64,000 nucleotides of DNA from a virus. Taxonomy: Duplodnaviria; Heunggongvirae; Uroviricota; Caudoviricetes. Shown piece after piece: positions 1,276 through 10,051 of this stretch; the first letter of the stretch is position 1; each line of letters starts with the position of its first letter. Below the pieces are notes generated by a model that worked only from the letters and a program-made list of their open reading frames with translations, searched no databases and was not told where the DNA came from. Made by a program: the position numbers and the translations under genes. The stretch lies in the IMG/VR virus record IMGVR_UViG_2585427757_000006. One strand, given 5' to 3'.

Positions 1276-1962
1276 TCAACAAAAACTGGCCACCGAGTTA
1301 GAGTTTTTCCAGTATCGATTTTCCGATTCATTTGGGGGTAATCCACCGTTATATTCGTGCGGTCTTAGTGCGCTGTAATATCCAACGATATAGTCCGTTA
1401 TGGCGTGAGCTGCCTCGCTGAAGCTTACGTAACCCACCACCGGCATCCATTCGTTCTTCAGACTCCTGAAGAAGCGTTCCATTGGGCTGTTATCCCAGCA
1501 GTTTCCGCGCCGGCTCATACTCTGCCTGATCTGGTATCGCCACAATAACTGCCGGAACTGCCTGCTCGTATAATGACTGCCCTGATCGCTGTGGAACATC
1601 ACTCCGCCGGGCTTACCACGGGTTTCCCATGCCATTTCCAGCGATTTCATGGTGAGCCTGCTGTCCGGCGAGAACGACATGGCCCAGCCCACTGGTTTTC
1701 TTGCGAACAGGTCGAGAACAACGGCGAGGTACGCCCAGCGCTTACCCGTCCAGATATAGGTCACATCACCGCACCACACCTGATTTGGCTCGGTCACGGC
1801 GAACTGCCGTTCAAGGTAGTTAGGGATAGCAACATGTTCATGACCACCACGTTTATACCGGTGAGTCGGCTGCTGACAGCTGACCAGCCCCAGCTCCTTG
1901 GCAATTTGACGTCCTTTCAGGCCTGGTGACCCACCTAATAACTCTGAGACTGCCTTCAGCAA
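1276..1962 (-). pseudogene. IS3-family transposase OrfB fragment (DDE/integrase core), 5'-truncated; OrfA missing
   Basis: [12 protein letters not shown]...[16 protein letters not shown]...[11 protein letters not shown] core motifs; N-terminal part of OrfB and all of OrfA absent; abuts hsdR stop at 1977. Confidence 0.8.
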
Positions 1963-1976
1963 ACCATCACTCCTTT

Positions 1977-7462: not shown

Positions 7463-9891
7463 TAGGCTTCTCCCTGAACTTCCGCCACTTTCACGCCTAA
7501 TATTTGTGCAATCAAACCATCAGCCTTCTGCTCTAGATTGATAATGTCAGTTGCTACTTCTTCAAGACTACGTAATGGCTTATGCAGATAGAAATACTTA
7601 TTGAAGCTGATTTCATAGCCAATTTTTACCGTATCTAGGTTTATCCATGCTTCATCGACATGAGGCTTCACTTCATCTAGGAAGTACTGGTAAATGCTTT
7701 GCTTTAATGGAACAGATTCTGTATCTCGCAGGTCTGAATTGGTCTCGTAAGTGATATACTCGCCTTTTTTACCGCCTTCTGCTGAAGGAACGGGGTAATA
7801 ACCAAAATCTGGCAAGTCAGCGACTTCACACTCATAGCGCTCCAGCAGGTCGTTTAATTTATCACCCGTTAATTTAACTACCTTTTTAACCACTTTCTTG
7901 GCGGTTTCGTCATACCAGCTCACCGCGTGAAGAATGGCATTTTTCTCAGGTGCTGAAAGCTTAATAGCATGGGCTTTTAGCGATTTATCAACTTGGGTTT
8001 TAAAGCTATTGAAGTCATCAAATTCAATGCTACCGATGTCAGCCATCAGCGTTTGTGCAGTTTCAAGCAATGCTTTTAGCGCCAGCCAGTGTTTCACATC
8101 AAGCAGTTTGGCCTTAGCCTTAGCATTGAGACTGATGTCGTTATCTTCACACCAAGAAAGAATGTCTTTCTCGATGGATTTTAAGAAGCTCTTTTTCTGA
8201 TCTGACCCGTAGCCAGTTTTTTCGTAAACACGTTCGCCGTGCTCTGCGTACACGTACTCCATCACTTCACTAAGTTGCTTATCAAAACGCAGTGGGGCTA
8301 TGGCATCTTGAGTAAACTTGGCTTTGCGGCGATCTGGGCGCTCGATAGTGACTTTGTAGTAGCCAAAATCGTCATTGCTGAATACCTTACTGGCGATGCC
8401 AACAGGATCATTGTTTGCATCCAGTGCTCTTTCAACATCCTTACACGCGAGGTAAGTATCGGTAATTTCCGTGATGTGCTCAGGCGCAAATTCGCAGTTT
8501 TTGTTACCTAAGTTCTTGCGCAACTTACGGTAGAGCAAGCTGGCATCAATTAATTGCACCTTACCTTTACGCGCCTCAGGTTTATTGTTGCTCAACACCC
8601 AAATGTAAGTGGTAATGCCAGTGTTATAGAACAGGTTATTAGGTAACTGAACGATGGCATCTAGCATGTCGTTTTCAATGATGAAGCGACGAATATTACT
8701 TTCACCACCGCCCGCATCTCCGGTAAAGAGCGATGAGCCGTTATGAACAGAGGCAATCCGGCTGCCTAATGGACTTACGCTCGGATCTTTCATCTTGTTG
8801 ACCATCTCCATTAAGAAAAGCAGCTGGCCATCACTCGAACGTGGCGTGGCATCCACCACTTCGAGATTTCCCCAATAGTCTTTCAGGCTAACCTTAAAAC
8901 GCGGGTCAATCACATCACTGCCGTCTTTAATGTACTTCTGTTCAGACGCCCAACTCTTACCGTATGGCGGGGTAGACAACATAAAGTCAAAGCGTGAAGC
9001 CGCAAACTCGTCGGTAGACAAGGTTGAGCCTACCTTGATGTTCTCAGGGTTGTTACCTTTGATCATCATGTCCGATTTACAAATCGCGTAGGTCTCGTCA
9101 TTGATCTCTTTGCCGTAAAGGTAAATATCTCGGCTGTCGTTCGGGTATTTCTCTTCAATGAAGTTTTGAGATTCAGTGAGCATACCACCGCTACCACACG
9201 CAGGGTCGTAAACGGTCATGGTCAATGGTAGCTGCTCTTTCACTGGGTCAAAAACCAAGTGTGTCATCAGCTCAATCACTTCCCTAGGTGTAAAGTGCTC
9301 ACCGGCTTCTTCGTTATTCTCCTCGTTGAACTTACGGATCAACTCTTCGAACACGTACCCCATACCCAGGTTAGTAAGGGCTGGCATCTTGTTGCCATCT
9401 GGGTCTTCGATCGTTTCATGAGTTAAGTTGATGTAAGGGGAAACAAACTTTTCGACGACATCAAGAAGGACTTGCTTTGAGGCCATGTGACGAATTTGCG
9501 ACTTGAGGTTAAAGCATTCAATGATTTCTTTAACATTATCGCTAAAGCTAAGCAGGTACTCTTCAAAGTTGGCGAGTAATATCTGTTGGTTATTCGTTGC
9601 GGTGTTGAACAGGGATTTCAGGGTCCATTTAGATGTATTGTAAAAAACATAACCACTAGCCGCCTTCAATGGTTCATCATCAAGCTCCGTGGCTTGCATC
9701 TCTTCTTTTTGGAACTTGACCTCTTCAAGCACGGCTTCTTTGGTGGGTTCAAGTAACGTATCTAAACGTCGTAATACCACCATAGGTAAAATCACATCGC
9801 GGTACTTACCGCGAACGTACACATCACGTAAACAGTCGTCGGCAATGTTCCATATAAATGAGATGAGCTTGTTATGTACACTATGATCCAT
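7462..9891 (-). CDS. hsdM: type I restriction-modification N6-adenine DNA methyltransferase, long form (~809 aa)
   Basis: HsdM N-terminal motif FIWNIADDCLRDVY; SAM motif VYDPACGSGGML; catalytic FDFMLSTPPYG; likely start MDHSV at 9891 (ORF-track start at 9927 is a TTG). Confidence 0.9.
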   Translation of the reverse strand: MDHSVHNKLISFIWNIADDCLRDVYVRGKYRDVILPMVVLRRLDTLLEPTKEAVLEEVKFQKEEMQATELDDEPLKAASGYVFYNTSKWTLKSLFNTATNNQQILLANFEEYLLSFSDNVKEIIECFNLKSQIRHMASKQVLLDVVEKFVSPYINLTHETIEDPDGNKMPALTNLGMGYVFEELIRKFNEENNEEAGEHFTPREVIELMTHLVFDPVKEQLPLTMTVYDPACGSGGMLTESQNFIEEKYPNDSRDIYLYGKEINDETYAICKSDMMIKGNNPENIKVGSTLSTDEFAASRFDFMLSTPPYGKSWASEQKYIKDGSDVIDPRFKVSLKDYWGNLEVVDATPRSSDGQLLFLMEMVNKMKDPSVSPLGSRIASVHNGSSLFTGDAGGGESNIRRFIIENDMLDAIVQLPNNLFYNTGITTYIWVLSNNKPEARKGKVQLIDASLLYRKLRKNLGNKNCEFAPEHITEITDTYLACKDVERALDANNDPVGIASKVFSNDDFGYYKVTIERPDRRKAKFTQDAIAPLRFDKQLSEVMEYVYAEHGERVYEKTGYGSDQKKSFLKSIEKDILSWCEDNDISLNAKAKAKLLDVKHWLALKALLETAQTLMADIGSIEFDDFNSFKTQVDKSLKAHAIKLSAPEKNAILHAVSWYDETAKKVVKKVVKLTGDKLNDLLERYECEVADLPDFGYYPVPSAEGGKKGEYITYETNSDLRDTESVPLKQSIYQYFLDEVKPHVDEAWINLDTVKIGYEISFNKYFYLHKPLRSLEEVATDIINLEQKADGLIAQILGVKVAEVQGEA

Positions 9892-10051
9892 TTTCTTTTC
9901 CTGTTCAGTGTTGGTTGCACCCCACAAAGTTGCTGCAACGGCTTCACTATAAATTTAAAATTCTGTTCTTTCTGTAACGCCTAAATGGCCTCTACATCGT
10001 TCGATTAACTTGTTCTACCCGGCGCTAGATTTAAGTTTATGACACCATAAA

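Follow-up and report, generated by a model that had tools for sequence, protein, structure and literature searches.

A hotspot-5-type type I restriction-modification cassette as probable defence cargo in an SSU5-like phage-plasmid of Escherichia coli

Defence genes are known as cargo of several mobile elements of enteric bacteria. A survey of the SSU5 group described RM, PrrC, PD-T4-3 and PD-T7-5 systems in one E. coli/Shigella clade of SSU5-like elements (bioRxiv 10.1101/2025.09.12.675607). The genes of hotspot 5 in SXT/R391 elements also occur in other genomic contexts (LeGault et al., bioRxiv 10.1101/2020.12.16.423150). Furthermore, the DUF4268 nuclease MdgA breaks down glucosylated T4 DNA and confers protection against T4 and Mu, and its E77A mutant is dead (PMC12366544). 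In the window, i.e., the whole 64,000-nucleotide stretch of the viral record IMGVR_UViG_2585427757_000006 that was analysed, positions 1258-10136 are foreign DNA inside the backbone of an E. coli SSU5-like phage-plasmid. They would represent a block of defence cargo; for the operon, the origin of the cassette and its single-entry history taken jointly, we put the probability at roughly 0.8. The block consists of the right 632 bp of IS911, a four-gene operon on the minus strand, a 48-nt remnant of brxR and the first 60-84 bp of a second IS3-family element. The cassette is ordinary and already sequenced, and defence cargo on SSU5-like elements is already known. The present block is an example of the RM cargo reported in the SSU5-group survey, which comes without site, junctions and origin; these are supplied here.

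The carrier is recognized by its backbone. Collinear homology to Salmonella phage SSU5 and to the Escherichia phages Cyrano and PhiR41_1 is found on both flanks, reaching 1257-1269 on the left and restarting at 10132-10136 on the right. The left backbone (1-1265, minus strand) holds small conserved ORFs with 76-87% DNA identity to the three phages up to 1257/1269, including the 3' remnant of a 426-nt ORF (about 1160-1257) that is intact in the relatives. On the right lies a 5' remnant of about 60 codons of an SPFH/stomatin-like gene (10137-10315, minus strand), with homology inside the 831-nt SPFH gene of the same phages; the ORF list gives it as 10124-10315. SSU5, Cyrano and PhiR41_1 have an unbroken 1.07-kb stretch at this site, with the SPFH gene intact. 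The block displaces about 1.07 kb that the relatives keep, namely part of the small ORF and most of the SPFH/stomatin gene. An uninterrupted site is likewise present in 144 PLSDB plasmids, and its carriers include Salmonella, Yersinia, Enterobacter and Citrobacter. The sequence-only reading had proposed that the IS and R-M genes were cargo inserted in a phage or phage-plasmid backbone, which the empty sites in the three phages and the 144 plasmids bear out. The option that the left 1.1 kb might be host chromosome was discarded, as this stretch matches phage-plasmid backbone instead. The closest full-length matches to the window are circular plasmids of 105-116 kb. A tail-fibre-like gene is also found within the window.

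The occupied site is shared by a smaller set of elements. Among public plasmids, at least 24 have the block at this position, and in all four of these carriers that were examined, the junctions are base-for-base identical; we therefore infer a single ancestral acquisition. This points to one entry, followed by inheritance by a sublineage, of an operon that would not be native to the backbone. The same hsd genes at the same place had been named beforehand as grounds against an insertion. This is literally the case in at least 24 plasmids, but the four examined share the IS-scarred junctions. Carriers of the block are filed as plasmids. Within a collection of 50,697 phage records, the hsd block was absent, and only the flanks and IS911 found matches. 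The limits of the block, first set at 1276-9927, were too narrow: because a second IS remnant at 10053-10136 had been overlooked, the end is now placed at 10136.

Composition is a less telling guide. The GC content is 43.8% in the cassette, 48.7% in the adjacent 10 kb and 46.4% in the remaining window. Backbone windows of cassette size have a standard deviation of 2.4 points, and 19% of them are equally low or lower in GC. Of the description as an AT-rich island, the lower GC (43.8% against 46.4%) stands, but not its distinctiveness; composition alone would not single out the island. The recurring dyad that had been noticed on both sides of the block is real. With up to two mismatches, the motif AGTACTTAYYTAT has 20 matches in the window, versus 3.4 +/- 1.9 expected. 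The matches are symmetric pairs at 1110-1129, 14070-14089 and about five more backbone sites, and none falls within 1258-10136. The copy at 1110-1129 (core TAAGTACTTA) lies upstream of the minus-strand ORF 821-1159, and its partner stands across the block at 14070-14089.

At the left edge of the block, the IS911 remnant (1266-1896, minus strand) comprises the IRR tip TGAAGTG at 1266 and the 3' part of orfB with an rve domain (Pfam). Over these 632 bp it has 98.3% identity to IS911 (IS3 family) of phage Sf6; the homology is limited to 1260/1266-1896, and the exact right inverted-repeat tip lies directly against the backbone sequence. A complete IS911 would have IRL, orfA, orfB with its programmed frameshift, and IRR, and of about 1250 bp only the 632 on the IRR side are present. 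Lacking the left 617 bp, which include orfA and IRL, the remnant is unable to move on its own. In contrast to IS911, its inner end is a microhomology deletion junction. In an alignment of four sequences (window, IS911, Alteromonas ICE, E. coli island), this junction is a 13-bp microhomology (CCAGCCCCAGCTC, 1884-1896) between the IS911 interior and the cassette, which reads as the mark of an illegitimate deletion, not as a transposase-made end. Homology to the ICE loci L006-L009 and to the E. coli island (L004) begins at 1884. Between this point and 1962, the position of the start codon (TTG) of the ICE gene, the first 78 nt of the gene following hsdR are kept (1884-1962, minus strand); in the ICE cassette it is a 361-aa ORF. 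The rve-domain ORF 1276-1962, which begins 14 nt from the hsdR stop codon, is a chimera because the IS911 homology stops at 1896 and its first 22 codons come from the truncated donor gene, fused in frame to IS911 orfB. The 5'-truncated IS3 transposase described next to hsdR was correctly located, but only part of this ORF belongs to the IS.

At the right edge, the window has 93.4% ungapped identity to the ICE locus L006 over 7457-10052. The spacer upstream of hsdM (9892-10004, minus strand) corresponds by homology to the stretch between brxR and hsdM in the ICE cassette. It is followed by the last 48 nt of brxR (10005-10052, minus strand), the gene of a WYL-domain regulator preceding hsdM in SXT/R391 hotspot 5. 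The homology stops at 10052, corresponding to L006 position 6133 within the BrxR gene (5212-6180), and the rest of brxR is lost. A promoter of the operon's own, if any, would lie in the spacer. No convincing minus-strand promoter upstream of hsdM emerged from a consensus promoter scan, and expression may therefore rely on read-through from co-oriented backbone genes. In a promoter/terminator scan of the block, promoter-like sites were fewer than in shuffled sequence. Next to the brxR remnant lies the left end of the second IS3-family element (10053-10136, plus strand), with a 24-bp tandem copy of the IRL tip (10053-10076) ahead of the IRL and leader (10077-10136). It stops 4 nt short of the element's orfA start and is joined to the SPFH remnant. 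Of 5426 E. coli genomes, 1195 contain the 60-bp piece, in as many as 16 copies each; at the E. coli locus L012, it lies directly upstream of an IS3-family transposase ORF. A Tn7-like or IS21-family end with several binding sites had been suggested by the 19-mers TGAATCGCCACAGGTTTAA, which occur twice at 10053-10095; locus inspection identified them as IS3-family IRL and leader. One E. coli match to the 60-bp piece falls under the annotation "IS21 family transposase", and an IS3-family element is inserted there.

Between these edges, the operon is closely related to cassettes of other elements. It has 93-96% DNA identity to SXT/R391 hotspot-5 cargo in Alteromonas loci, where the same operon lies between rumBA and traI, behind the WYL/BrxR gene (order: rumBA ... 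brxR-hsdM-hsdS-DUF4268-hsdR ... CBASS-traI; hotspot 5 as described by LeGault et al., bioRxiv 10.1101/2020.12.16.423150). An E. coli tRNA-Ile island holds copies that match it at 98-99%, with IS911 ends on either side of the cassette. At 98% identity or above, the DUF4268 protein recurs in Vibrio, Alteromonas, Marinomonas, Providencia, Morganella and Edwardsiella. By these matches, the operon was shown to belong to a very mobile cassette that is common to SXT/R391 hotspot 5 and the E. coli tRNA-Ile island. The block differs from hotspot 5 itself, which has BrxR at its head and lies between s026 and traI: only 48 nt of brxR are left, there is neither an ICE backbone nor the adjacent CBASS genes, and the carrier is a phage-plasmid. 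On sequence grounds it is a derivative of the hotspot-5 cassette, not an ICE hotspot. The E. coli island keeps 130 nt of the downstream gene and the phage-plasmid 17 more bp of the IS3-family end; since each keeps sequence lost by the other, neither is the direct parent of the other. Among the arrangements considered, none derived the island locus or the window locus directly from the other. A circular permutation was considered, as the IS911-like right end adjoins the hsdM side in the island and the hsdR side in the window. It was rejected: identity between the two IS copies is no higher than 94.7%, and on the hsdR side of the island there is an IS911 left end as well. Separate IS911 copies at the two ends of the cassette account better for the pattern than a circular intermediate.

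The operon (1977-9891, minus strand) consists of four intact genes, i.e., hsdM, hsdS, a DUF4268 nuclease gene and hsdR. The hsd operon had been recognized from its three R-M genes; the fourth gene, between hsdS and hsdR, had been missed. As in the type I references EcoKI and EcoR124I, the three subunits have the expected domains, with swappable HsdS recognition domains and the nuclease and SF2 motifs of HsdR; the fourth gene between hsdS and hsdR is a difference from both. HsdR (1977-4994, minus strand; 1005 aa) matches Pfam HSDR_N, SWI2_SNF2/ResIII and T1R_D3-like and PADLOC REase_I. It combines a PD-(D/E)xK nuclease (ELK at residue 169) with an SF2 helicase motor (Walker A AGSGKS at 318, DEAH at 431). 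Its length equals that of the ICE and chromosomal copies, and it differs from other E. coli copies by 2-3 aa. HsdS (6182-7462, minus strand; 426 aa) has two target-recognition domains (Pfam Methylase_S) and full-length PADLOC Specificity_I matches. Its conserved stretches span about 6182-6290 and 6749-6955. The recognition domains vary among otherwise near-identical copies, giving a pattern of variable and conserved blocks, and BLAST gaps fall exactly there (L004, L005, L013-L016). The hsdS start codon shares 1 nt with the hsdM stop codon (TAATG), an overlap of M and S genes also found in EcoKI.

HsdM (7462-9891, minus strand; 809 aa) has HsdM_N (9.9e-23) and gamma-class N6-adenine methylase (N6_Mtase, 1.3e-58) domains, motif I DPACGSGG at residue 229 and a PADLOC MTase_I match (PDLC03029, E=3e-266, residues 2-798). 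Its start is the ATG at 9891, a PGAP start supported in homologues, whereas the mechanical ORF extends to a TTG at 9927. The Pfam methylase domain ends near residue 499. The C-terminal 328 aa (7465-8448, minus strand) comprise a conserved helix/beta region of about 260 aa and a terminal long helix, the former in effect inserted behind the catalytic domain and ahead of the C-terminal helix. For this insertion, no Pfam domain and no match to any solved fold were found. Hundreds of proteins of other genera share the C-terminal region at 55-80% identity. The protein is also 809 aa long in the ICE, the chromosomal island and other plasmid copies; the reported length and long C-terminal region were thus accurate, but in a family in which all copies compared have 809 aa, they are not unusual. 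The insertion sets HsdM apart from EcoKI and EcoR124I. Only in the catalytic core does its sequence resemble M subunits of solved structure (EcoR124II M, E=5e-22; EcoKI M, E=7e-9), which places HsdM at a distance from families IA and IC.

A detail new in the present analysis is codon 307 of hsdM (8971-8973, minus strand), which is ACC (Thr) versus AAC (Asn) in all compared relatives. Motif IV, (D/N/S)PP(Y/F), is occupied and reads TPPY instead of NPPY; the five comparator loci have SNPPY. NPPY is found in 36 of the 37 family members scanned, the present protein being the sole TPPY. The allele occurs on two assemblies, in the same context. With 3 aa separating the protein from NPPY copies, its descent within the type I family is not in doubt, but its catalytic competence is.

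The embedded gene (5009-6172, minus strand) encodes a 387-aa nuclease, a full-length match to the PADLOC candidate PDC-S11 (E=1.4e-182). Its N-terminal half is a NucS/EndoMS-like PD-(D/E)xK domain (D63, E77, K79) and its C-terminal half is Pfam DUF4268. D63 and K79 are invariant and E77 nearly so across 44 diverse homologues. An AlphaFold2 model (pLDDT 93.7) matched NucS 2vld and EndoMS 5gke (prob 1.00) and also Shedu SduA in Foldseek. The domain order and the PDC-S11 match are as in MdgA/PDC-S11, and the catalytic Glu 77 is as in MdgA E77A. The protein is probably a modification-dependent, type IV-like nuclease like MdgA; the two are linked only by DUF4268, by being nucleases and by the shared residue number E77. 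It differs from MdgA, which stands alone, in being embedded in a type I operon. In plasmid pLAO4, the hsdS-hsdR slot holds a different nuclease pair, made up of DUF262 and DUF262-HNH proteins. PrrC had been suspected from the gene position; it was rejected since neither an ABC-ATPase-like nor an anticodon nuclease domain was found with Pfam, NCBIfam and PADLOC, and the fold is NucS-like.

The scars at both edges suggest a history whose order of IS events is a reconstruction, although each of the proposed steps has left a visible scar. An IS3-family element would have cut off brxR, and IS911 would have come to adjoin the other cassette end. The unit would then have entered the phage-plasmid, the IS911 right end being the only true transposition junction. 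Illegitimate deletions would subsequently have taken about 1.07 kb of backbone, together with one half of IS911 and a portion of the adjoining cassette gene. Since this single entry, the lineage has diversified by swapping of hsdS recognition domains, replacement of the embedded nuclease in one plasmid and more IS insertions. That the block was instead ancestral to the phage-plasmid group and lost from empty-site relatives is hardly credible. Many related plasmids do carry it at the same position, but at the very positions where the window holds truncated remnants, the empty-site relatives have the same genes complete and conserved, and the edges are IS fragments and donor gene remnants (brxR, the 361-aa ORF). 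Empty sites also outnumber occupied ones (144 versus about 24), spanning Salmonella, Yersinia, Enterobacter and Citrobacter.

As for the working of the acquired operon, established knowledge of type I systems predicts that HsdM2-HsdS would methylate a bipartite site, set by the two HsdS recognition domains, in host and phage-plasmid DNA, and that the HsdR-bound complex would translocate on and cut incoming unmethylated DNA. The 387-aa nuclease would most likely act alone, type IV-like, on hypermodified phage DNA escaping type I restriction. The N307T change in motif IV may weaken methylation and perhaps the system as a whole, and the latter may not work at all in the present element. A dead or dying system, in which N307T abolishes methylation and which persists as restriction is also lost or held down by restriction alleviation, is a tentative explanation, short of even odds. 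An r-m- phenotype is classical for hsdM mutants. The present protein is the exception to Asn 307 among the 37 family members and to NPPY in 5/5 comparator loci, the allele is confined to two assemblies, and motif IV is needed for methylation in type I enzymes, where a change of NPPF/NPPY to APPA abolishes it (PMC5100572). Apart from this change, however, the four genes are intact and of full length, and other private changes number only 1-3. Threonine moreover still offers an oxygen for hydrogen bonding, and other amino-methyltransferases function with SPP(Y/F) motifs, so some HsdM activity may remain. Since N307T is recent, it permits no conclusion on tolerance over time.

For the embedded nuclease, a role as a PrrC-like guarded back-up, silenced by the type I complex and freed when a phage anti-restriction protein disables this complex, is unlikely. 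In the EcoprrI locus, prrC sits between hsdS and hsdR, the slot taken here by the 387-aa gene, and the exchange in pLAO4 shows the slot behaving as an exchange point. Yet the 387-aa protein has neither PrrC similarity nor an ATPase or anticodon-nuclease domain, and its fold is that of a DNA nuclease. The DUF262 and DUF262-HNH replacements in pLAO4 are of the GmrSD type IV family (PMC4619093), and for MdgA one cloned gene is enough for protection, with cleavage of modified DNA in vitro (PMC12366544). A highly speculative and improbable idea is that the HsdM insertion is a docking or control module coupling the type I complex to the nuclease in the hsdS-hsdR slot, be it NucS/DUF4268 or the GmrSD-like pair of pLAO4, which would make the operon one machine sensing unmodified and hypermodified DNA. 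If this were true, the TPPY allele would be a natural separation-of-function variant of the joint machine.

The natural N-to-T change in a methylase catalytic motif and the widespread HsdM insertion without structural assignment are small leads for further work, and neither alters what is known of type I systems or phage-plasmids. The block provides a worked, base-by-base example of how an SXT/R391 defence cassette of marine and enteric bacteria is also found in an E. coli island and a phage-plasmid, in a carrier lineage that varies the specificity subunit and swaps the embedded nuclease.

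The E. coli SSU5-like phage-plasmid represented in the window carries a block at 1258-10136 that is foreign to its backbone. The flanks match Salmonella phage SSU5 at 83-87%, and also match Escherichia phages PhiR41_1, Cyrano, and CMS-2020a. Backbone homology stops at 1257-1269 and restarts at 10132-10136. In the relatives, these points are separated by about 1.07 kb, to which a 426-nt ORF contributes its 5' part and an 831-nt SPFH/stomatin-like gene the greater part of its length. Of the 426-nt ORF only the 3' end is left in the window, and of the SPFH gene some 60 codons (ORF 10124-10315), so that the block took the place of backbone DNA and did not merely split it. 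The uninterrupted site was found in 144 PLSDB plasmids and the block at the same position in at least 24, while the block was absent from every record of the phage collection searched. The empty site in the phages and plasmids, together with backbone homology on both sides, supports the proposal of the sequence-only reading that a type I restriction-modification (RM) island is carried here as cargo. Junctions were compared in four block-bearing plasmids (pNT1F31-113kb, pLAO4, pRHB03-C12_2, and pNT1F34-108k). The inner IS911/cassette junction and the right junction were identical to the window in all four. Three also matched it base for base where brxR meets the IS3-family end, and two at the left junction. 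A single acquisition followed by inheritance is the simplest reading of these sequences.

The cargo proper is a cassette at 1897-10052. According to the ORF listing, the minus strand holds every substantial ORF from 58 to 16561. Five of these fall within the flagged span, four of them being the genes of the operon. The hsdM gene (7462-9927; HsdM_N and N6_Mtase) has 821 codons as a mechanical ORF and encodes 809 aa from the ATG at 9891. Its stop overlaps by 1 base the start of hsdS (6182-7462; 426 aa, Methylase_S). A 387-aa DUF4268 gene (5009-6172) and hsdR (1977-4994; 1005 aa, HSDR_N, ResIII/SWI2_SNF2, and a T1R_D3-like domain) complete the operon. PADLOC assigned type I profiles to all three hsd products; for HsdM, the match to MTase_I PDLC03029 covered residues 2-798 (E=3e-266). 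HsdR contains ELK at 169, AGSGKS at 318, and DEAH at 431. The operon thus consists of four intact genes. The three hsd genes had been recognized from the sequence, but the fourth had been overlooked.

This fourth gene most likely adds a second kind of nuclease to the system. Its product matches the PADLOC defence candidate PDC-S11 over the full length (E=1.4e-182), and NCBIfam gave weak NucS matches. A homologue search returned 5527 representatives at E<=0.001, and in an alignment of 44 diverse members (30-60% identity) E26, D63, K79, Q90, and Y94 were invariant and E77 nearly so. This pattern is that of a PD-(D/E)xK triad. The AlphaFold2 model (pLDDT 93.7) matches NucS (2vld) and EndoMS (5gke) at a probability of 1.00; for the Shedu nuclease SduA the probability is 0.92. 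The DUF4268 half at the C-terminus shows only a weak resemblance to small YbjN-like and chaperone-like folds. DUF4268 is an accessory domain of the GmrSD type IV enzymes (PMC4619093) and is contained in MdgA and MdgB, two functionally selected defence nucleases (PMC12366544). MdgA confers protection from T4 and Mu. Its degradation of glucosylated T4 DNA greatly exceeds that of the unmodified DNA of T4-GT7, and the E77A substitution destroys its activity (PMC12366544). The coincidence of this catalytic residue with E77 of the 387-aa protein, compared by residue number, is suggestive. Moreover, in pLAO4, DUF262 and DUF262-HNH genes of the GmrSD family occupy the same slot between hsdS and hsdR, where they supplant the DUF4268 gene in its 3' part and hsdR over its first ~45 codons. 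The swap lies at 5301-8816 of the locus extracted from this plasmid (NZ_OP242218.1, L014), equivalent to window 4861-5641, and the surrounding block is 98% identical. Therefore, the hsdS-hsdR gap behaves as a place where type IV-like nucleases are exchanged. For the 387-aa protein, the minority alternative is a guarded effector resembling PrrC. The PDC-S11 match, the triad, the NucS-like model, the DUF4268 and MdgA literature, and the pLAO4 swap together favour a putative type IV-like, modification-dependent nuclease within a type I operon.

As for HsdM, its length of about 809 aa had been called unusual. The length is real but ordinary for the family: all ICE, island, and plasmid copies checked also have 809 aa. 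A search with the last 328 residues gave 819 homologues at E<=0.001, with identities of 55-80%, from Klebsiella, Vibrio, Methylococcaceae, Flavobacteriaceae, Desulfomicrobium, and others. Catalytic motif IV of this copy carries a private change. Codon 307 of hsdM (window 8971-8973) is ACC, whereas AAC stands in the ICE, in the copy of the E. coli island, and in three further phage-plasmids, and the motif reads TPPY instead of the NPPY of the comparators. The NPPY allele is also that of pNT1F31-113kb, whose HsdS is a different one. Among 37 family proteins containing the motif, 36 have NPPY and the HsdM of the window is the sole exception. A one-off read error is unlikely, because two assemblies, one of them named E. 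coli 3-267-03_S4_C2, carry exactly this protein (WP_032252475.1), and at the single locus that was inspected it has the same surroundings as in the window. In type I enzymes, replacing NPPF or NPPY by APPA abolishes methylation (PMC5100572). A single private change was also seen in HsdR (S348N), where it falls outside the canonical motifs, and another single one in the 387-aa nuclease (A254V). There is about one chance in three that the system of this element is substantially impaired.

The two ends of the block differ in nature. On the left, the IS911 annotated in phage Sf6 matches 1266-1896 with its right 632 bp at 98.3% identity, and the tip of the IS911 right inverted repeat (TGAAGTG...) abuts the backbone exactly. 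Only this junction looks as if it was made by a transposase. The IS911 piece and the cassette meet inside the 13-bp CCAGCCCCAGCTC (1884-1896), present in both, which is the signature of a microhomology deletion. The adjoining minus-strand ORF at 1276-1962 (ORF call; 228 aa, rve integrase core domain by domain search) is a chimera of 22 foreign codons and the tail of IS911 orfB, because 1884-1962 stems from the gene next after hsdR in the ICE cassette, of which it is the initial 78 nt. The transposase remnant that had been placed 15 bp from the hsdR stop is this chimeric ORF; true IS911 sequence stops 80 bp from the stop codon. In pNT1F34-108k, an IS110-family element lies within the IS911 remnant at window 1584/1585. 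In pRHB03-C12_2, the backbone between window 133 and 1268 is missing (1668-1741 of locus L015), and the gap ends precisely at the IS911 right end, as expected of an IS-adjacent deletion.

On the right, a different IS3-family element has left its leader and left inverted repeat at 10053-10136. At 10053-10100, the tip of this end occurs twice in tandem (24-bp unit TGAATCGCCACAGGTTTAAYAGAC), a duplication also seen in the E. coli island copies. A 60-bp core of the end is present in 1195 of 5426 complete E. coli genomes and, at a locus that was inspected, lies directly 5' of a transposase ORF of the IS3 family. The piece is cut 4 nt short of the transposase ORF start, and where it meets the SPFH remnant the two share no more than 1-3 bp.

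Copies of the 387-aa protein at >=98% identity occur in E. coli, Salmonella, Citrobacter, Enterobacter, Morganella, Providencia, Edwardsiella, several Vibrio species, Alteromonas, Marinomonas, and Cellvibrio. Alteromonas genomes and marine metagenome contigs share the order rumB-rumA, an RNase T-like gene, brxR (WYL), hsdM (809 aa), hsdS, DUF4268, hsdR (1005 aa), several unknown genes, a CBASS pair, and traI. This setting is the hotspot-5 position of SXT/R391 elements, a hotspot reported to have a WYL gene at its start and defence genes as cargo in every case (LeGault et al., bioRxiv 10.1101/2020.12.16.423150). Except for the hsdS recognition domains, the ICE cassette is 93-96% identical in DNA to window 1884-10052. 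In hotspot 5 the same operon lies behind brxR, whereas the window keeps only the last 48 nt of that gene, within which homology to the ICE stops at 10052. A copy that is 98-99% identical resides on E. coli chromosomes in a tRNA-Ile island next to mug and rpoD. There, too, brxR is truncated at the same point and followed by the same IS3-family end, the latter only to window position 10119-10122, and the copy keeps more (130 nt) of the gene downstream of hsdR. The IS911 left end lies on its hsdR side and an IS911-like right end on its hsdM side. In two of these chromosomes (L004 and L005, locus positions ~23280-26780), the IS911-like element beside the cassette is interrupted by a group II intron (ltrA). 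Several block-bearing plasmids likewise have a group II intron within the 12-kb search region (window 1-12000).

The shared scars (brxR cut, IS3-family end, and IS911) combined with the differing remnants point to a common ancestor in which brxR was already cut and IS911 already adjacent; neither the island nor the phage-plasmid can be the direct parent of the other. A unit of IS911 plus cassette may have entered the phage-plasmid via the IS911 right end, either as a cointegrate or through recombination between IS911 copies, one of them already resident. Later deletions would have created the 13-bp junction and removed 1.07 kb of backbone. The sequence itself shows only the junction types, and this order of events is a plausible inference.

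The GC content of the cassette is 43.8%, against 48.7% in the next 10 kb and 46.4% in the rest of the window. The windowed calculation confirmed the lower GC that had been noted. Among equal-sized windows elsewhere in the backbone (standard deviation 2.4 points), 19% have a GC content as low as this or lower. The difference exists but is not diagnostic. A 302-aa ORF at 26074-26982 lies in a stretch of 29.6% GC (window average 46%), by composition far more outstanding than the hsd block. It gave no Pfam or PADLOC match, adjoins four tRNA genes (27161-27718; Ser-TGA, Thr-TGT, Tyr-GTA, and Asn-GTT), and may be another cargo or defence candidate. The 46001-47000 stretch, within ORF 43045-47466, has 60.7% GC and a strong AT skew; it is an Ala/Ser-rich low-complexity region of a 1473-aa tail-fibre-like protein, Tandem Repeats Finder reported no repeat there, and it looks ordinary.

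The dyad motif described on both sides of the block was recovered. Centred on AGTACT, it occurs at 1110-1129, 14070-14089, and about five further places, and AGTACTTAYYTAT at <=2 mismatches gave 20 matches, compared with 3.4 +/- 1.9 in shuffles. The same scan found none inside the block, and the motif is a backbone feature. Because the copies inspected have minus-strand genes downstream, it may be an operator or promoter element. The RecA-like gene of the backbone (10610-11683) is variable. In PhiR41_1, Cyrano, and many related plasmids, it measures 2340 nt and is in places annotated 'LAGLIDADG family homing endonuclease'. A 1264-bp insertion in it, at 4681-5945 of locus L001 and 4624-5888 of locus L002, is lacking in SSU5 and in the window (at 11492-11494), and looks like an intein/homing-endonuclease insertion polymorphic within the phage-plasmid group.

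Altogether, the block is a known kind of object. Dozens of public records already contain it in annotated form, and RM systems have already been named as cargo in surveys of the SSU5 group of phage-plasmids (bioRxiv 10.1101/2025.09.12.675607). What the sequence-only reading observed was largely correct. The present analysis adds the exact boundaries and junction types, the identity of the fourth gene, the TPPY allele, and a link between this phage-plasmid cargo, the hotspot-5 cargo of SXT/R391 elements, and the E. coli tRNA-Ile island.
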